Part shown: one piece after another, positions 5,906 to 25,080 of the stretch | How positions within the stretch are numbered: the stretch's first letter is position 1 | Layout of the letters: every line of letters begins with the position of its first letter | From: an uncultured Planctomycetia bacterium | GTDB lineage: Bacteria; Omnitrophota; Gorgyraeia; 2-02-FULL-51-18 | Direction of reading: 5' to 3' | Assembly (NCBI GenBank): GCA_964402785.1 | Contig: CAYODQ010000001.1 | Coordinates: forward strand, 18,124 to 82,123 | DNA: 64,000 nt | Position numbers and translations under genes: made by a program | Notes under the pieces: generated by a model | The model's database searches: none | Seen by the model: only the letters and a program-made list of their open reading frames with translations | What the model was told of the DNA's origin: nothing

Positions 5906-8608
5906 ATGAAATATATTTTGTTGGATGGTAATTCGTTCTGTTACCGCGCCTTTTACGCGATCCGCGATCTTCGCACATCCAAAGGTGAGCCCACCAACGC
6001 CATCTATGGCGTGATCGTGATGCTGGAGAAGATCGTTAAACATATCAAGCCGGATGGCGTAGCGGTCACTTTCGACTTAAAGGGCCCCACCCATCGCCAT
6101 GAAAAATTCGATCAATATAAGATCCACCGGGCACCCATGCCGGGTGACCTGGTGAGCCAGATGCCCAAGATCAAGGAAGTGATCGAGGCGATGAATATCC
6201 CCATTTTTGAAAAAGAGGGCTACGAGGCCGATGACATCATCGCAACGCTCGCAACCCATCTTGAAAAAAAAGGCCACGAGGTTTTTATCGTCACGGGCGA
6301 CAAAGATATGATGCAGCTTGTGACCAAGAAAGTAAAAGTGGTCAACCCGCAAAAAGATAATCTGGTTTACGATGCGGCAGAGGTCACCAAAAAATTTGGC
6401 GTGGGGCCCGATAAGGTAGTCGAAATATTGGCGCTCATGGGGGATGCCTCCGATAATATTCCCGGCGTGCCGGGGATAGGGGAGAAAACAGCGACCACCC
6501 TCGTGACGGAGTTTGGCTCCGTTGAGAATCTTCTTAAGAATTTAAATAAGTTCGACGCTCTTTCCAAGCGCTATCCCAGGGTTTTTACGGATAAGCTGAA
6601 AGAGAATTTACAGAAACACAAAGAAGACGCGGTTCTTTCCAAAGATCTTGCCACCGTGATGCGCGATGTACCGATAGACTTTGATGTGGAAGGTATGCGT
6701 ATTCAGGAACCCAATCAAAAGAAGCTCACGGATCTATATCAACAATATGAATTTCGCACGCTGCTTAGGCACGTGCCATCAACCGAGCCCAAGAATGCCG
6801 ATGACAAAGAGCTGTCGTACCATCTCATCACCAGTAAAGATGGTTTTGAGGCGCTCAAGAAAAAGCTTTCTTCGCATAAAAAATGGGCTTTTGATTTTGA
6901 AACCACGGATGTTAACCCCATGATCGCAAAGCCTGTGGGAGTCTCATTTTCTTTTAAAGCCAGAGAGGCATTTTTTGTTTCTTTTGCAGGAGAACTCAAA
7001 GCCAAAGATTGCCTGCATTCTCTTAAGAGTCTTTTTGAGGACAAACATTTCTTAAAAGTCGGCCAAAATATCAAATACGAGATCATGATCTTGAAGAATT
7101 TTGACATCGATCTACAGGGAGTAGATTTTGACACTATGGTGGCTTCTTATTGCCTCAATCCCGCTAAACCCAATCACAATTTGGATGATATTGCCATGGA
7201 GCATCTGGGTGTGAGGATCACCGATATCGTGGAGCTGATCGGCACAGGAAAAAGTCAGATCACCATGGATCAAGTCGATCTCGACAAGCTTTATCGATAT
7301 GGCTGCCAGGACAGCGATGTGACGCTGAGGCTTTCAGATGTGCTCTCCCAAAAACTCGAAGAAAAAGACCTGATGACACTTTTTAGGGAGATCGAGATGC
7401 CTCTTGTGAAAGTGCTGGCCGATATCGAGTTTGCGGGTGTGGCTATCGATACTCAGATGCTAAACGATCTATCTCGGGAGATGGAGAAGAGTTTGGCCGA
7501 GCTGACCAAGACCATCCACAAAGAAGCGGGGGGTGAGTTCAATATCAATTCGCCCAAACAGCTGGCAGAGATTTTGTTTGAAAAGCTGGGCCTTCCTATG
7601 GTAAAAAAGACTAAGACAGGCGCATCCACGGACGTGGGGGTTCTTCAAGAGCTTTCCGAAATTCATTCTCTTCCCAAGGAAATACTTAAATTCAGAGAAC
7701 TTTCGAAGCTAAAATCGACCTACGTAGATGCCTTGCCGGAGCTGGTCAATCCCCATACAAAAAGGGTGCATACCTCCTTCAACCAAACCGTGACGGCTAC
7801 GGGCCGGTTATCCTCGACGGATCCGAATCTTCAGAATATACCCGTTCGTACGGCTGAAGGACGAAAGATCAGGCGTGCATTTGTGGCGGGATCGCCGGGT
7901 GCCGTGTTGCTTTCGGCGGATTATTCTCAGATCGAGCTGAGGGTATTGGCGCATTTGTCGGGCGATGAGAAATTGATAGAAGCTTTTAAAAAAGGCGCGG
8001 ATATTCACCGGTTCACAGCGGCGCTCATTTACAATGTCGATATCAAGGATGTGACCGACACTATGCGGTCTTCGGCCAAAACGGTTAATTTTGGCGTGCT
8101 GTATGGGATGGGCGCTTTTAGCTTGGCCAAAAGCCTGGGTATCAAGAATGATGCCGCCAAAGATTTTATCAAAGCTTATTTTGACCGCTATCCGAGCGTG
8201 AAAGCGTATTTGGATAGCTCGATCGAAAAAGCGAAAAAAGACGGGTTTGTTTCAACGGCGTTCAAAAGACGCCGCTATATTCCTGAGATCCACTCGAGCG
8301 ACCCTAGGGTCAGGAGTTTTGCGGAACGCACCGCGATCAATGCTCCGCTTCAGGGTACGGCAAGTGACGTGATCAAGATCGCCATGATCCGTATCGCAGG
8401 ACTATTCGAGAAAAAGGGGATCAAGACCAAGATGATCTCTCAGGTGCATGACGAGCTTTTGTTTGAAGGCCCGCAAGCTGAGATCAAGCAGATCGCGGAT
8501 CTTGTCCGAAGGGAGATGTCGGGTGCTGCGGATTTTGTGGTGCCGCTTGATGTGTCAGTGAAGATCGGGCCCAATTGGCTGGATATGAAAGAGATTGATA
8601 ATAAATGA
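5906..8608 (+). CDS. polA: DNA polymerase I (5'-3' exonuclease, 3'-5' exonuclease and polymerase domains)
   Basis: 900 aa; N-terminal FEN-like region, polymerase motifs RRAAKTVNFGVLYG and QVHDELLFE. Confidence 0.97.
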   Translation: MKYILLDGNSFCYRAFYAIRDLRTSKGEPTNAIYGVIVMLEKIVKHIKPDGVAVTFDLKGPTHRHEKFDQYKIHRAPMPGDLVSQMPKIKEVIEAMNIPIFEKEGYEADDIIATLATHLEKKGHEVFIVTGDKDMMQLVTKKVKVVNPQKDNLVYDAAEVTKKFGVGPDKVVEILALMGDASDNIPGVPGIGEKTATTLVTEFGSVENLLKNLNKFDALSKRYPRVFTDKLKENLQKHKEDAVLSKDLATVMRDVPIDFDVEGMRIQEPNQKKLTDLYQQYEFRTLLRHVPSTEPKNADDKELSYHLITSKDGFEALKKKLSSHKKWAFDFETTDVNPMIAKPVGVSFSFKAREAFFVSFAGELKAKDCLHSLKSLFEDKHFLKVGQNIKYEIMILKNFDIDLQGVDFDTMVASYCLNPAKPNHNLDDIAMEHLGVRITDIVELIGTGKSQITMDQVDLDKLYRYGCQDSDVTLRLSDVLSQKLEEKDLMTLFREIEMPLVKVLADIEFAGVAIDTQMLNDLSREMEKSLAELTKTIHKEAGGEFNINSPKQLAEILFEKLGLPMVKKTKTGASTDVGVLQELSEIHSLPKEILKFRELSKLKSTYVDALPELVNPHTKRVHTSFNQTVTATGRLSSTDPNLQNIPVRTAEGRKIRRAFVAGSPGAVLLSADYSQIELRVLAHLSGDEKLIEAFKKGADIHRFTAALIYNVDIKDVTDTMRSSAKTVNFGVLYGMGAFSLAKSLGIKNDAAKDFIKAYFDRYPSVKAYLDSSIEKAKKDGFVSTAFKRRRYIPEIHSSDPRVRSFAERTAINAPLQGTASDVIKIAMIRIAGLFEKKGIKTKMISQVHDELLFEGPQAEIKQIADLVRREMSGAADFVVPLDVSVKIGPNWLDMKEIDNK

Positions 8609-10759: not shown

Positions 10760-12019
10760 ATGGATATAGATTTAGCGAAACTTAAGAAAATGAAAATGTC
10801 GGAGCTGAACGACATCGCCCATAAGATGAAAGTGAATGGTGTCAGCGGACTCAAGAAACAGGATCTGATCTTTAAGATCCTGCAGGCGCAGCCCGAACAG
10901 GATGGCGTCATGACGGGGGAGGGTGTACTGGAGATCCTGCAGGACGGCTTCGGATTTTTACGCTCACCCAATTACAATTATTTGCCTTGCCCGGATGATA
11001 TTTATGTATCTCCGTCTCAGATTCGCAAATTCAATTTGCGCACGGGTGATACTGTAGCCGGTCAGATCCGCCCGCCCAAAGAGGGTGAGCGTTATTTCGC
11101 CATGCTGATGGTGAACAAAGTGAACAATGAGTCGCCTGGTGATGTGCGCGAAAAGGTGCTGTTCGATGACCTGACGCCCATTTATCCAAACCATAAATGG
11201 CAGATGGAGACGGGCGGTTCCGACGTATCGACACGCATTTTAGATCTATTGGCTCCTATTGGTATGGGTCAGCGTGGTCTTATTGTGGCGCCGCCCTACA
11301 GCGGTAAAACCGTGCTGATGCAGAAGATCGCCAATAGCATCACCACCAATCACCCGGATGCGGTGATGATCGTGCTTCTCATCGATGAGCGCCCGGAAGA
11401 AGTCACGGATATGCAACGCCTGGTGAAGGGTGAGGTCATAAGCTCCACCTTTGATGAGCCGGCTGAGCGTCATGTGCAGGTGGCTGAGATGGTGTTGGAG
11501 AAGGCTAAGCGTTTGGTTGAATGCAAAAAGGATGTTGTGATCCTTTTGGACTCGATCACTCGTCTCGCACGTGCCTATAACACAACTGTCCCACATTCAG
11601 GTAAGATACTGTCAGGCGGTGTGGACTCGAATGCGCTTCACAAGCCCAAGCGGTTCTTTGGTGCTGCGCGCAGCATCGAAGAGGGCGGCAGTTTGACCAT
11701 CATCGCGACGGCTCTGGTGGACACGGGCAGCCGCATGGACGAAGTGATCTTTGAAGAATTTAAGGGTACCGGTAATATGGAAGTTCAGTTGGATCGCAAT
11801 TTGTTCCAACGCCGTATTTATCCGTCTATCGATATCAAGCGCTCCAACACAAGGCGCGAAGAGTTGTTGGTGGAAAAAGATGACTTGGCCAAGATATGGA
11901 TCTTGCGCAAAGTGTTGAATGAACTGAGTAGCGCGGAAGCGATGGAGCTTTTGATCGATAAGGTCTCAAAGACCAAAACGAACCGCGAATTTTTGAAAAA
12001 TATGAACAAGGTGTCATAA
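10760..12019 (+). CDS. rho: Transcription termination factor Rho (full length: N-terminal RNA-binding domain + ATPase domain)
   Basis: N-terminal Rho_N/CSD-like region; P-loop APPYSGKT; Q-loop and R-loop motifs ([20 protein letters not shown]). Confidence 0.97.
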
Positions 12020-19862: not shown

Positions 19863-20102
19863 ATGAAAAAGTTTATCACCGGTTTAATGATTCTAATGGT
19901 TTGCGCGGCTTCGTCGGGTGTCGCTTTGGCTCATTGCGGCAAGTGTGGTATGGATGGTGAGCATGGCGATAAAAAAGAATGCACTATGTCTGCCGACAAG
20001 AAGCAATGTTCGATGAAAAAAGACAAAAAGTCTTGCGAAACGCATTGCAGCAAGCCTTGTTGCAATAAAGCCAAGACGAATTTTGGCCCGAGAAAGAGAT
20101 AG
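19863..20102 (+). CDS. Small secreted Cys- and Lys-rich protein (79 aa)
   Basis: Signal peptide MKKFITGLMILMVCAASSGVALA followed by HCGKCG..C..C..C..CC pattern; good RBS GGAGGG upstream; own terminator downstream. Confidence 0.55.
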   Translation: MKKFITGLMILMVCAASSGVALAHCGKCGMDGEHGDKKECTMSADKKQCSMKKDKKSCETHCSKPCCNKAKTNFGPRKR

Positions 20103-21705: not shown

Positions 21706-21737
21706 CTCTTTTTATATTTCTCTCTCACGCCTATCAT

Positions 21738-22024
21738 GTAGTCGGTAACAGGTTTCGCTTTTGCCCACCCTTGCCCTTTTCCTCGCATAGCTTTGTCATA
21801 AATGGCATGGACCCCTGCCTGCCGGCAGGCAGGCTCGCCAAAAGTCCGTTGGCCTCGAAGGTACACTCGTGCGGTATGCCTAAAAGAGCCATGACGCACT
21901 CGCGCTATATTAAAGGCTCGGCCAATGGGACTTTCAAGTGGCGTCTCCATTGCCATTTATGACAAAGCTATAAGCGCTCGGAAAAGGCCGGGATTGGTCA
22001 AAAACGAAACCTGTTACCGACTAG
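21738..22024. repeat. Giant imperfect palindrome G1 (about 290 bp, nested inverted repeats) containing a perfectly palindromic 20-mer CCTGCCTGCCGGCAGGCAGG at 21814-21833
   Basis: Outer arms GTAGTCGGTAACAGGTTTCGCTTTTG / CAAAAACGAAACCTGTTACCGACTA; inner arms CTTTGTCATAAATGGCATGG / CCATTGCCATTTATGACAAAG. Confidence 0.65.
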
Positions 22025-22092
22025 ATGCTAGACGGGCACTCGGCTATTAATTGATCTATCAGGGCGAGTGCCAGTTTAGAGCCTAAGCCGTT

Positions 22093-22333
22093 GCTCGATC
22101 TTTGTTTTCTTTGTTCCCGGCCCTTTTGGAGCGCTTATGGTTTTGTTGTAAGTCGTTTGGAGACGGCACGAGCCCTGAGTTTAGAGTCTAGCGAGCTGGA
22201 AATCCACCGGACGCTTCGCCCTGTTGATATAGGACTACTACCGAAGCGTCTTGGATTTTGTCCGAGGATCCAAATGACTTACAACAAAACCATGCGAGAA
22301 AAGGGGTAAGGGCAAAGAAAATAAAGATCGAGC
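22093..22333. repeat. Giant imperfect palindrome G2 (about 240 bp), related to G1 (shared CCTTTTCCGAGCGCTTAT-like arm motif)
   Basis: Arms GCTCGATCTTTGTTTTCTTTG..CCTTTTGGAGCGCTTATGGTTTTGTTGTAAGTC / GACTTACAACAAAACCATGCGAGAAAAGG..CAAAGAAAATAAAGATCGAGC. Confidence 0.6.
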
Positions 22334-22378
22334 GACGGCTTGCATCTATGACTTAGAGAGATAATTGAAAGGTTCTTC

Positions 22379-22405
22379 TTGGATAAACGATATTTGCGTT
22401 ATAAT
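22379..22405 (+). promoter_or_regulatory. Putative sigma70 promoter for rarA operon (TTGGAT-15 nt-TATAAT) with SD-like AGGT before ATG22416
   Basis: Hexamers read from sequence; 15-nt spacer is short. Confidence 0.4.
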
Positions 22406-22415
22406 GAGGTACTGT

Positions 22416-23714
22416 ATGGATCTCTTCGAGTCGCGCTCTCAGGGTAGTTCTGGACATGAACCTCTTGCTGTTCGTATGCGGCCGTCTTTGTTGGCGGAAT
22501 ATACGGGGCAGGAGCATATATTGGCGCCGGGGAAATTGCTGCATCGCGCCATTATTTCGGATCGAATTTCATCGATCATTCTTTATGGACCGCCGGGTAC
22601 AGGCAAGACCACCCTCGCGACGGTTATCTCCAATGAAACCAAGTCACATTTTGAGGCGTTGAATGCGGTTTCCAGCAGCGTTGCTGAGATCCGCAAAGTC
22701 ATAGAGGGCGCCAAGCAGCGTATCGCTGTTAAAAAGCAAAAGACGATCTTGTTCATCGACGAGATCCATCGGTTCTCAAAGTCGCAGCAAGATGTTCTTA
22801 TGCCGGATGTGGAGAGGGGGAATCCGATCCTTATTGGTGCGACGACACAAAATCCATTTTTTTCGATCGTACCGGCGCTTTTGTCTCGATCGCTCGTGTT
22901 TGAGCTGAAGTCTCTCTCGGAAGCGCATATACAAAAAATCATTCTCAATGCTTTGCAAAATAAAGAGAAGGGGTTGGGAGCGTTCCCGGTCCAGTTGGAT
23001 ACAGATGCTCTGGAGCTGCTGTCGATCAAGTGTGATGGCGATGCGCGCCGGGCTTTAAATGCGTTGGAGATCGGGGTATTGACGACGCCCAGGAATGAGT
23101 CGGGGCAGATCGTTTTCACAAGAGATGTTGCGGAAGAGTCTATCCAAAAAAAAGCCGTTGTTTATGATGCGGATGGGGATGGGCATTATGATACGATATC
23201 TGCATTCATTAAGTCGATGCGCGGCTCGGATCCGGATGCGTCGCTTTATTATCTGGCCAAGATGCTGTATGCCGGCGAGGATCCAAGATTTGTCGCACGT
23301 CGTATCGTGATCTGTGCTTCCGAAGATGTGGGCAACGCTGATCCTAGGGCGCTCATGATCGCCAATGCTGCATTTCAGGCAGCGGAGTACCTGGGGATGC
23401 CGGAGGCTAGGATACCGCTGGCTCAAGCTGTGGTTTATATTGCATGCGCACCCAAATCGAATGCCAGCTATCTAGCCATCGATAAAGCTTTGAAGGATAT
23501 AGCCGAAAATAAAACACTGGAAGTGCCCAAGCATCTAAAAGATGCCAGTTATAAAGGGGCGCAGGTGTTGGGTCATGGTGAGGGATATAAATATGCCCAC
23601 GATTATGAGGGGCATGTCGTGGCGCAAGACTATCTTGAAAAGCGAATTCAATATTACTTTCCAACAGATCAAGGATATGAAAAAACTATGAAACAGAATT
23701 TGAGGAAGTCGTGA
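22416..23714 (+). CDS. rarA: Replication-associated recombination protein A (AAA+ ATPase MgsA/RarA); start trimmed to ATG22416
   Basis: LYGPPGTGKTTLA Walker A, FIDEIHRF Walker B, C-terminal MgsA helical domain. Confidence 0.92.
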   Translation: MDLFESRSQGSSGHEPLAVRMRPSLLAEYTGQEHILAPGKLLHRAIISDRISSIILYGPPGTGKTTLATVISNETKSHFEALNAVSSSVAEIRKVIEGAKQRIAVKKQKTILFIDEIHRFSKSQQDVLMPDVERGNPILIGATTQNPFFSIVPALLSRSLVFELKSLSEAHIQKIILNALQNKEKGLGAFPVQLDTDALELLSIKCDGDARRALNALEIGVLTTPRNESGQIVFTRDVAEESIQKKAVVYDADGDGHYDTISAFIKSMRGSDPDASLYYLAKMLYAGEDPRFVARRIVICASEDVGNADPRALMIANAAFQAAEYLGMPEARIPLAQAVVYIACAPKSNASYLAIDKALKDIAENKTLEVPKHLKDASYKGAQVLGHGEGYKYAHDYEGHVVAQDYLEKRIQYYFPTDQGYEKTMKQNLRKS

Positions 23715-24679
23715 GAGATTTTAGATCCCAAAGGCAAGGCGGCAACAATCATTGGCGCTCTCAGACGGCGCATGGCCGCAGACCGATGCATCAGCCTGCC
23801 GTTCGGCAAGCAGATGAGTTTGAGAAAAAATTTTATGCAGGCACCGCTGTAGATCCATCGCCGCGGATCCGGCTCGAGTCGGGCAGCTCGGAGCTGACGA
23901 TGCGCGCTATGGATCTGATCTGTCCGATAGGGATGGGGCAAAGGGGTTTGATCGTAGCACCGCCCGGTTCCGGAAAGACCACTTTTTTGAAGCATATTTG
24001 TCAGTCGGTCGCAAAAGGTTATCCGGATATCAAATTGTACTGCCTCTTGATCAATGAGAGGCCGGAGGAAGTTACGGATTTTAAACGCAGTGTGGCTGCG
24101 ACGGTTAAAGCATCATCATCCGACGAAAGTTACGAGCAGCATATTCGCGCTGCGGATGAATTATTGAGAGAGGCGTTTCGCGAGGTCTCGGAGGGAAAGA
24201 ATGTTATGATCGTGATCGATTCTCTGACGCGCCTTGCTCGCGTGCACAATGCCGAGCGCCATTCGAGTGGTCGCACGTTGTCAGGCGGTGTGGATGCGAG
24301 AGCTTTGGAGGCGCCCAGGAGGATATTTGGCGCCGCCAGAAAGATCGAGAACGGGGGATCGCTCACGATGTTGGCGACGATCCTGGTACAGACAGGTAGC
24401 CGTATGGACGATGTGATCTTTGAGGAATTTAAAGGCACGGGCAATATGGAGATCGTCTTGTCCAGAGAGATATCTGGCCGGCGTATTTTTCCGGCGATTG
24501 ACATTCCCAAGAGCGGTACCCGAAGAGAGGAGTTGTTGTTAGGCTCCGAAGAACTTCTGAAGGTGCGCAAGTTGCGCCGTACTCTGGCGGAATTGGGCGC
24601 AGTCGATGCGGCAAGGACATTGGTCGAACATCTAGAAAAACATCGGAATAATCAGGAATTATTGGACGCAATTCGATGA
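23711..24679 (+). CDS. Rho-like ATPase: paralogue of Rho comprising only the C-terminal RecA-like ATPase/translocase domain (no N-terminal RNA-binding domain), Arg-rich N-terminal tail
   Basis: [70 protein letters not shown] align along their length with Rho 10760-12019 from residue ~165; GTG start overlapping rarA stop. Confidence 0.8.
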   Translation: MRDFRSQRQGGNNHWRSQTAHGRRPMHQPAVRQADEFEKKFYAGTAVDPSPRIRLESGSSELTMRAMDLICPIGMGQRGLIVAPPGSGKTTFLKHICQSVAKGYPDIKLYCLLINERPEEVTDFKRSVAATVKASSSDESYEQHIRAADELLREAFREVSEGKNVMIVIDSLTRLARVHNAERHSSGRTLSGGVDARALEAPRRIFGAARKIENGGSLTMLATILVQTGSRMDDVIFEEFKGTGNMEIVLSREISGRRIFPAIDIPKSGTRREELLLGSEELLKVRKLRRTLAELGAVDAARTLVEHLEKHRNNQELLDAIR

Positions 24680-25080
24680 GCGATGGGGGATATACCATGA
24701 AAAAAAGGGCATGGCCCATATTGCGCAGCTTTTATAAAGCCAGTATTTTGTATTATCTTTGGTTGCTTGTTTTGATTGGTAAGAAGTTTTGGCCCCAGAT
24801 TGTGTTTTGGTATGAAAGTGGATTTTTGGTAGCGTATTTCTTTCTTCCCTGCGCTCAGCTTTTTCTTCTTTGGCTTCATTTGGCAATATTGCGAGGGATT
24901 GCCAAGGATCAGCCGTGGGCGCTCATGGGCAGTTTATTGGTGGCCGGCACTCACACAATGTGTGCGATAGCTTTGCCGGGGCTAGATATTTACACAAGGT
25001 ACTTTTTGATCGCATCCGCAGCTGTATTCCTTTCAACTCTCACTCAGTTTTTCCTCCGTCTGGCCGAACTGCGTTCATAA
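24676..25080 (+). CDS. Small polytopic membrane protein (hypothetical)
   Basis: About 4 hydrophobic helices; ATGA overlap with upstream gene. Confidence 0.5.
   Translation: MSDGGYTMKKRAWPILRSFYKASILYYLWLLVLIGKKFWPQIVFWYESGFLVAYFFLPCAQLFLLWLHLAILRGIAKDQPWALMGSLLVAGTHTMCAIALPGLDIYTRYFLIASAAVFLSTLTQFFLRLAELRS

Follow-up and report, generated by a model that had tools for sequence, protein, structure and literature searches.

An ATPase-domain-only paralogue of Rho, conserved in Omnitrophota and under purifying selection

Introduction

In current models the N-terminal domain (NTD) of Rho, a factor for transcription termination, serves in the recognition of C-rich rut RNA, in allosteric closure of the ring and, in RNA polymerase (RNAP)-centric versions, in docking on RNAP, NusA and NusG. 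Structures of the E. coli pre-termination complex place the Rho NTD in contact with RNAP and NusA. Described here is a gene, termed short rho, that encodes a Rho paralogue without this domain. It lies in a stretch of 64,000 nucleotides (the window; contig CAYODQ010000001.1, positions 18,124 to 82,123, of assembly GCA_964402785.1) from an uncultured bacterium labelled Planctomycetia and assigned by GTDB to the Omnitrophota. Coordinates are positions within this 64-kb window, and residue numbers such as K184 follow the numbering of E. coli Rho.

Canonical Rho (the E. coli type; TIGR00767/PRK09376; Type 1 of PMC11347177) shares its C-terminal RecA-type ATPase domain with short Rho at 49-52% identity. 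Both proteins have Walker A and B motifs, the catalytic Glu, the Arg valve, the Arg finger, the Q-loop and the R-loop. Compared with canonical Rho, short Rho is without the N-terminal 130 residues, which hold the Rho_N helix bundle and the OB/CSD primary site, and therefore has neither the rut-recognition site nor the NTD contacts to RNAP and NusA. A basic, disordered tail of 2-84 aa replaces the NTD in the short family.

A second, shorter rho beside a full-length copy, with ATPase residues kept, is already known as 'Group B' (D'Heygere et al. 2013, as cited in PMC11347177), 'Type 4' or NF041509 paralog_Rho2. According to PMC11347177, these forms lose Rho_N alone, keep the CSD and are counted as functional Rho, whereas short Rho is without the CSD as well. 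That survey (NAR 2024) covers 2730 RefSeq genomes and defines a functional Rho by the presence of both RNA-binding and ATPase domains; Omnitrophota are not mentioned in it. Single-domain 'Rho-like' sequences from 421 species are set aside in its supplement as non-functional by definition. PMC13613805 applies the same two-domain criterion, and neither survey included Omnitrophota in its sampling. Short Rho would fall into this bin by definition. The short family is shown here to be a coherent clade under strong purifying selection with a signature and a tail of its own. A 2025 review of Rho (PMC12360218) mentions neither paralogues nor truncated forms. ATPase-only Rho-like sequences have been noticed and set aside previously, and a conserved clade with this signature, tail and selection pattern is not described in the literature searched.

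A basic, compositionally biased and disordered segment N-terminal of the motor is also found in atypical Rho (Bacteroides, Mycobacterium, Micrococcus; Type 2 of PMC11347177). Those proteins carry the disordered region in addition to a complete NTD; in short Rho it is far shorter and stands in the NTD's place. The R/Q/N/G-rich insertions of atypical Rho are reported to raise RNA affinity or to drive condensation (PMC11347177).

Results

Short rho occupies positions 23711 to 24679 on the + strand (stop codon included), with a GTG start and a product of 322 aa, as the list of open reading frames (ORFs) confirms. The same genome harbors a canonical full-length rho at 10760 to 12019 (+ strand), whose 419-aa product contains Rho_N, Rho_RNA_bind and ATP-synt_ab domains and scores 702 bits against TIGR00767. 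In a BLASTP comparison, residues 45-318 of short Rho pair with residues 139-412 of the canonical protein with 142 of 274 identities (52%), 72% positives, zero gaps and E=2e-100, which bears out the gap-free match to the C-terminal part of Rho claimed in an earlier, sequence-only reading of the window. The absence of the primary RNA-binding (CSD/OB) domain, claimed in the same reading, also holds. The sole Pfam match of short Rho is ATP-synt_ab, with no match to Rho_N or Rho_RNA_bind (PF07498, PF07497), both of which match the canonical copy, and a search of all frames of the window gave no NTD homology for short Rho.

NCBIfam Rho profiles cover short Rho only from profile positions 131 to 413. 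The protein scores 388 bits against PRK09376, above the cut-off of 315, and relatives therefore carry the database name 'transcription termination factor Rho'. It falls below the cut-off for TIGR00767 (371 bits against 509) and for NF041509 paralog_Rho2 (325 bits against 628, over profile positions 78-359 only). Short Rho is not a member of the F1/V1 ATPases or the FliI/SctN type III export ATPases, whose profiles gave at best 91 bits against cut-offs of 380-750. Among PADLOC defence models, only a 30-bit, P-loop-level match to mad8 was found and no full-length match. An AlphaFold2 (AF2) monomer model built on 67 family members has a mean predicted local distance difference test (pLDDT) score of 88, and its top Foldseek matches are chains of E. 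coli Rho (282 columns, root-mean-square deviation (rmsd) 2.2 A, TM 0.83). By BLASTP, Pfam and NCBIfam profiles, short Rho is a genuine Rho paralogue consisting of the ATPase/translocase domain alone, an architecture that lacks the NTD and has intact catalytic and pore residues.

Residue conservation was scored across 119 family members, and the P-loop, Q-loop, R-loop and arginine-finger region that had been read from the sequence are all present (motif coordinates are on the + strand). The Walker A/P-loop APPGSGKTT (23957 to 23983, residues 83-91) contains invariant K184 and T185, and the K181 position is G in all 119 members. In the motif INERPEEV (24050 to 24073), the catalytic Glu E211, the Arg valve R212 and E215 are 100% conserved, and position 210 holds D in 61% of the members and N in another 38%. 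The Walker B region VIDSLTRLAR (24212 to 24241) has D265, R269 and R272, all at 100%. The arginine-finger region SGTRREE (24512 to 24532, residues 268-274) provides R366, also at 100%, and the E334-E342 motif is conserved to the same degree.

The central pore is similarly retained, and its Q-loop and R-loop align to canonical Rho without gaps. The Q-loop of the secondary (pore) RNA-binding site, NAERHSSGRTLSGG (24248 to 24289, residues 180-193), keeps S286, G287 and G288, and has K283 replaced by R and V284 by T in 100% of members; its pLDDT is low, as expected for a flexible pore loop. In the R-loop TGSRMDD (24392 to 24412, residues 228-234), T323, G324, S325, M327 and D328 are invariant, and K326 is R in 99% of the family, as in canonical Omnitrophota Rho. 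Both pore lysines, K283 and K326, are thus Arg, as they are in other NTD-less Rho-like sequences. Substitutions specific to the short family relative to canonical Rho are A192C, T231S, A273V, Y274H, K298R and F300I.

The sequence-only reading had about 60 disordered residues taking the place of the NTD. A basic disordered tail is present, MRDFRSQRQGGNNHWRSQTAHGRRPMHQPAVRQ (23711 to 23809, + strand, pLDDT ~50), but it extends over residues 1-33 only. Residues 34-71 (23810 to 23923, + strand) are structured and conserved, correspond to the connector between the NTD and the C-terminal domain (CTD) of Rho, and carry the family signature, with the consensus DEAExRFxAGTAVDPSPRIRLEDGSxELTMRAMDLIC and a mean column identity of 82% over 50 members. 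Tails of the Omnitrophota family are 2-84 aa long (median 27) and have R (19%) and P (14.5%) as their most abundant residues, with S, H, N and Q next. Between the window and its nearest relative (locus L006), the rate of non-synonymous substitution (dN) is 0.49 in the tail and 0.093 in the core, a difference of about fivefold, and the composition of the tail is kept despite this fast change in sequence. The tail often begins with a conserved M-[RK]-[ND]-F tip (23711 to 23722 in the window; N-termini of P0001-P0120), with Phe4 in 41 of 72 long tails against an aromatic background of 4.4%. This suggests that the MRNF tip is a short docking motif on a flexible linker. Some of the apparently short tails are start miscalls; for example, locus L012 reads MRNFRFEKK... 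upstream in frame.

Similar tails occur in other Rho-like proteins without the NTD. A second family, of the Binatia type, has a uniform tail of ~39 aa (R 23%, Q 13%, G 12%), and NTD-less singletons have RGG-like or R/K-rich tails of 30-100 aa. Because a basic disordered tail recurs in NTD-less forms, it is read here as a substitute, sequence-unspecific RNA-binding device. An analogy is offered by bacterial DEAD-box helicases, in which an unstructured Arg/Gly/Pro-rich C-terminal tail on an RNA-dependent ATPase core serves in unspecific RNA tethering; a DEAD-box protein encoded near short rho in L012 ends ...SRPGQRPYGGGQRSHGPSRSHGDFSRRPRR. The basic tails are alike, but they are attached at opposite ends of the protein, and the ATPase folds are unrelated (a superfamily 2 monomer versus a RecA-type ring). 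By this analogy, and by that with the R/Q/N-rich insertions of atypical Rho, the tail of short Rho may be a sequence-unspecific RNA tether.

Short Rho is widespread among Omnitrophota. Among 5.8 billion proteins searched, more than 120 clusters matched, at 67-95% identity and with lengths of 285-376 aa, all having the ATPase (ATP-synt_ab) domain only; named clusters come from Candidatus Omnitrophota metagenome-assembled genomes (MAGs) or from bins labelled Elusimicrobia or Verrucomicrobiae. A scan of GTDB, with one genome per species and two family peptide motifs ([VI]DP[ST]PR[IL]RLE and G[SC]xE[LF]T[MV]R[AV]M), found 170 species representatives, the best 80 of which are nearly all Omnitrophota MAGs, some of them labelled Planctomycetales, Elusimicrobia or Deltaproteobacteria. 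Stop-to-stop frames run to 292-421 aa in the 91 loci that were fetched (~86 distinct), except for a handful that are truncated or reach a contig end. A search of every frame in these 91 loci revealed no NTD-like sequence other than that of a true full-length rho, which lies at the border of L012. The ratio of dN to the rate of synonymous substitution (dS) is 0.025-0.07 in four comparisons, dS being saturated for most other pairs. Short Rho is under strong purifying selection. That the gene is not a frameshifted remnant follows from the uniform frames, the lack of an NTD remnant and the dN/dS values of 0.025-0.07.

Other origins were also considered. A split Rho with a separately encoded NTD was rejected, as no NTD-like ORF occurs in the window or within 10 kb in the 91 loci; small ORFs upstream of short rho in L001 have no Pfam domain. 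A phage or defence origin was likewise rejected, with no short-rho copies on viral contigs and no PADLOC system match. A single MAG, JANNFA01 (isolate OTE_75_metabat_350), has two contigs with one short rho each (L014 and L017; dN 0.013, dS 0.52), which are either from two strains binned together or the result of a recent duplication.

A neighbour-joining tree of 192 C-terminal domains (support out of 100) recovers the short Omnitrophota family as monophyletic (100/100), apart from a clade of canonical Omnitrophota Rho that also has 100/100 support. The mean Kimura distance from the short family is 0.79 both to Omnitrophota Rho and to Rho from other phyla, compared with 0.56 among canonical Rhos. 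Within-group distance is 0.26 for the short family and 0.13 for canonical Omnitrophota Rho, a roughly twofold faster evolution. Since it is equidistant from all canonical Rho, short rho is an old, fast-evolving paralogue rather than a recent duplicate. A recent duplication of the resident rho was rejected on the same grounds, the short family not being sister to Omnitrophota Rho.

An exhaustive search of 1.84 billion cluster representatives for further NTD-less forms found additional Rho-like proteins without the RNA-binding domain. One of these, P0135, represents another large family, with proteins of 320-330 aa (L009-L011, gene at 6001-6987), whose hosts are MAGs labelled Binatia, Methylomirabilota or Deltaproteobacteria, including closed genomes of 4.4-4.9 Mb. 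The short family groups with P0121 and P0125 (the latter from a Sericytochromatia-labelled MAG) at 93/100, and the Omnitrophota family, the P0135 family, P0121, P0125 and P0194 form a clade of NTD-less proteins only, at 75/100. Common to this clade are the derived residues C192, S231 and H274, which are A, T and Y in canonical Rho. The clade is defined by a length of 285-340 aa, a core that starts from the connector, the DPSPRIRLE/ELTMRAMDL signature, C192, S231 and H274, and a basic disordered N-terminal tail; the window protein has every one of these features. P0132 (a Hydrogenedentes-labelled cluster), P0145, P0183 and P0222 are NTD-less but lie outside the 75/100 clade, which may reflect separate losses of the domain or long-branch effects. 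These four and P0194, all from other uncultured lineages, have RGG-like or R/K-rich N-terminal tails of 30-110 aa, with GGGQ repeats in P0194. Three further Rho-like sequences (P0157, P0166 and P0214) continue beyond the CTD for another 90-340 residues, which in P0214 are glycosyltransferase-like and then low-complexity read-through. All three seem to be gene calls that result from a frameshift or from read-through, not true fusions.

In the window, short rho is tightly packed between rarA (22365 to 23714, + strand; MgsA_C, AAA_assoc_2 and AAA domains) and an ORF for a 134-aa hydrophobic, transmembrane (TM) protein (24676 to 25080, + strand). As the sequence-only reading had described, the GTG start overlaps the rarA stop in a shared GTGA, and the stop overlaps the ATG of the TM ORF in a shared ATGA. 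An AGGA Shine-Dalgarno sequence lies 6-9 nt upstream of the GTG, and the start call is supported by L006, which has an ATG at the equivalent position (MRDFRYQ...). Promoter and terminator scans around short rho gave counts no higher than in shuffled sequence. No clear signal of horizontal acquisition was seen, with GC content overall and at third codon positions (GC3) near those of host genes. The TM ORF matches no Pfam, NCBIfam or PADLOC family and has a homologue only in L006 among the fetched loci.

Adjacency of rarA and short rho is confined to L006, one of the ~86 distinct loci. rarA is within 10 kb in 3 of 91 loci: L006, L090 (2.4 kb upstream) and L053 (5 kb downstream). The short Rho of L006 is 84% identical to that of the window, and the entire block of SpoIIE-phosphatase, TfoX, RarA, short Rho, TM ORF, GT8, PhyH and GT8 is syntenic. 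Relatives of 70-81% identity have unrelated genes around short rho; in those of 76-81% identity the upstream genes encode an O-antigen ligase-like protein, a uracil-DNA glycosylase (UDG; other strand), a histidine kinase or a rotamase.

Canonical rho keeps its PolA-GlgA-CoaE-Rho-L31-PrfA-PrmC context in relatives. Canonical and short rho were found on one contig in three genomes: in the window (12 kb apart), in L012 (CAYZGM010000014.1) and in CAYSKO010000007.1 (~40 kb apart). Clustering of the three genes on each side of short rho in 74 loci revealed ABC-F ATPases of 3-4 orthogroups, on either side, in ~20 loci. The gene immediately downstream codes for an RlmI-like S-adenosylmethionine (SAM) methyltransferase in 8 loci, and the one immediately upstream for an RluA-like pseudouridine synthase in 4-5; 3 loci have a gene for a DEAD-box helicase nearby. 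At least one of these four occurs within three genes in 31 of the 74 loci (L022, L025, L031, L042, L043, L045, L049, L054, L056-L059, L062, L067 and others, as well as L076, L083, L084, L087 and L089). The context of short rho is suggestive of an RNA/ribosome flavour rather than of DNA repair.

Several other features of these loci were observed. As listed, the window rarA begins at a TTG (22365), alignments to RarA profiles begin at residue 18, and the L006 orthologue has 436 aa; the true start is probably an ATG ~13-17 codons downstream of the TTG (22365 to 22420). The window RarA covers only the first 432 of 736 positions of the PRK13341 'RarA/unknown domain fusion' models. The tfoX-rarA spacer contains two adjacent, mutually related imperfect hairpins, at 21725 to 22038 (~310 nt) and 22080 to 22345 (~265 nt). 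They consist of nested inverted repeats with arms of up to 55 nt, one 21-nt arm pair being 100% complementary. RNA folding gives an energy of -164 kcal/mol (z = -12.9) for the first and -139 kcal/mol (z = -13.9) for the second. In L006, the second hairpin is 72% conserved over 265 nt, though synonymous sites are saturated between the two genomes. No further copies were found in the 64-kb window and no Rfam match was obtained; the hairpins could be a structured RNA or leader, or an element resembling a miniature inverted-repeat transposable element (MITE). Rfam and tRNA scans of the entire window gave no matches. A 79-aa ORF at 19863 to 20102, matched in position by a 79-aa gene in L006 (2258-2497), possibly encodes a small secreted metal-binding protein: its N-terminus resembles a signal peptide and its body is rich in Cys, Lys and His (CGKCG..., CSKPCC). 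In a Verrucomicrobiae-labelled MAG, a giant gene (positions 1-5606 of L004/L005; product of at least 5700 aa with an FHA domain) lies just upstream of short rho.

Discussion

The results point, with moderate confidence, to short Rho being a functional, divergent member of the Rho family that acts as a rut-independent RecA-type ring RNA translocase beside canonical Rho. We infer four elements of this model: hexamer formation, an RNA substrate, the tail as a loading device and a cellular role. Short Rho would assemble a Rho-type ring and hydrolyse ATP, and the ring would thread RNA through the intact central-pore (secondary) binding site. RNA would be captured without rut recognition, either via the basic tail or via partners. 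Short Rho would then work alongside the canonical Rho of the same cell as an RNA translocase or a ribonucleoprotein (RNP) remodeller. Possible tasks include the removal of RNAs or R-loops and action on ribosome-associated or rRNA substrates, the latter hinted at by the recurrence of ABC-F, RlmI-like, RluA-like and DEAD-box neighbours. Since NTD contacts with RNAP and NusA are impossible, any termination would have to be of the RNA-tracking mode.

Several observations weigh against this model. Loss of the NTD removes both the known allosteric activation of ring closure and the contacts to RNAP, and a classical termination role is uncertain. In roughly one quarter to one third of members the tail is truly short (2-14 aa), and some have no tail at all, so that the tail cannot be the sole route for engaging RNA. 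The association with RNA/ribosome genes is partly inherited synteny and may be coincidence, and canonical rho itself adjoins translation genes. Four or five loci appear truncated, among them L013, L034, L038 and L058, in which frames are shortened or interrupted (198-275 aa); these could reflect MAG or assembly error, or occasional gene decay.

A broader and more tentative proposal is that the NTD-less proteins of Omnitrophota, Binatia/Methylomirabilota and others constitute an ancient, multi-phylum clade of Rho motors that has given up the rut-reading primary site and every RNAP contact made by the NTD. Its members might form a second, sequence-unspecific ring RNA translocase that is loaded by the tail with its MRNF tip, and that either partners with ABC-F proteins and rRNA enzymes or co-assembles with canonical Rho. 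This is possible, and we put it forward with less confidence than the function proposed for short Rho itself.

Co-assembly is also the basis of the main rival explanation, already raised in the sequence-only reading, in which short Rho is a subunit-mixing modulator. Hetero-hexamers with canonical Rho would have fewer primary sites per ring, thereby tuning rut affinity, ring closure or dependence on NusG and RNAP. Canonical Rho is co-resident in all three genomes checked, the ATP site spans subunit interfaces with the trans-acting R366, R212 and R269 identical in both paralogues, and the predicted fold of short Rho superposes on the Rho CTD at 2.2 A. However, the paralogues are only 52% identical, and the short family is equally far (0.79) from co-resident and foreign Rho, which is not the pattern of co-evolving subunits. 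Obligate mixing is therefore mildly disfavoured. In addition, canonical and short rho never sit side by side or in the same orientation within one operon, being 12 kb apart in the window and ~40 kb in CAYSKO010000007.1, and a separate device for substrate capture is suggested by the conservation of the basic tail and its MRNF tip. On balance, subunit mixing appears rather unlikely.

More doubtful still is a dedicated ribosome- or rRNA-directed remodeller that would act with ABC-F proteins and rRNA-modifying enzymes in biogenesis or rescue, and not on nascent transcripts. This role is suggested as a narrower version of the translocase model, and the ABC-F ATPases of several orthogroups, together with the RlmI-like, RluA-like and DEAD-box neighbours, speak for it. 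However, such neighbours are missing from over half of the loci, the window among them. Much of the signal is synteny inherited within sub-clades with no universal partner, and housekeeping information-processing genes commonly cluster loosely.

The sequence-only reading had also proposed a translocase partnered with RarA, a DNA or RNA motor that would act with this AAA+ ATPase. The GTGA in which the stop of rarA and the start of short rho overlap is kept in L006 as well. Nevertheless, rarA is adjacent in only one of ~86 loci and within 10 kb in three, and relatives at 76-81% identity have unrelated upstream genes. The linkage is not conserved, and a RarA-Rho(CTD) two-gene module was rejected. 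Because L006 shares the entire neighbourhood, the adjacency is recent synteny, and the overlapping start and stop codons are compact operon packing with unrelated genes. A RarA-coupled function is very improbable. Weakest is the explanation that short rho is a decaying remnant of a duplicated rho (a pseudogene) or an annotation artefact: the protein does resemble a truncated Rho and a few frames are interrupted, but dN/dS is 0.03-0.07, the catalytic and pore residues checked are kept in 119 members, in 170 species the cut falls precisely, and at the same place, on the domain boundary, no NTD remnant occurs in any frame and the family has invariant signature residues of its own, so that conservation, selection and the AF2/Foldseek fold match to Rho leave it practically no credence.

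ATPase-only Rho is not debris but a coherent paralogue clade with its motor and pore intact, and it appears to be kept beside canonical Rho in hundreds of uncultured species. At least two well-populated NTD-less families carry an Arg-rich tail, convergent or ancestral. The annotation 'transcription termination factor Rho' overstates what is known of these proteins and inflates per-genome counts of Rho. If active, short Rho would show what the Rho motor is capable of without the primary site, would be a natural test bed for tethered-tracking versus allosteric termination, and may hint at a second role for ring RNA translocases in bacteria. On the broader and more tentative proposal, the NTD-less proteins would be a natural separation-of-function variant with which RNA-centric and RNAP-centric models of Rho termination can be told apart.

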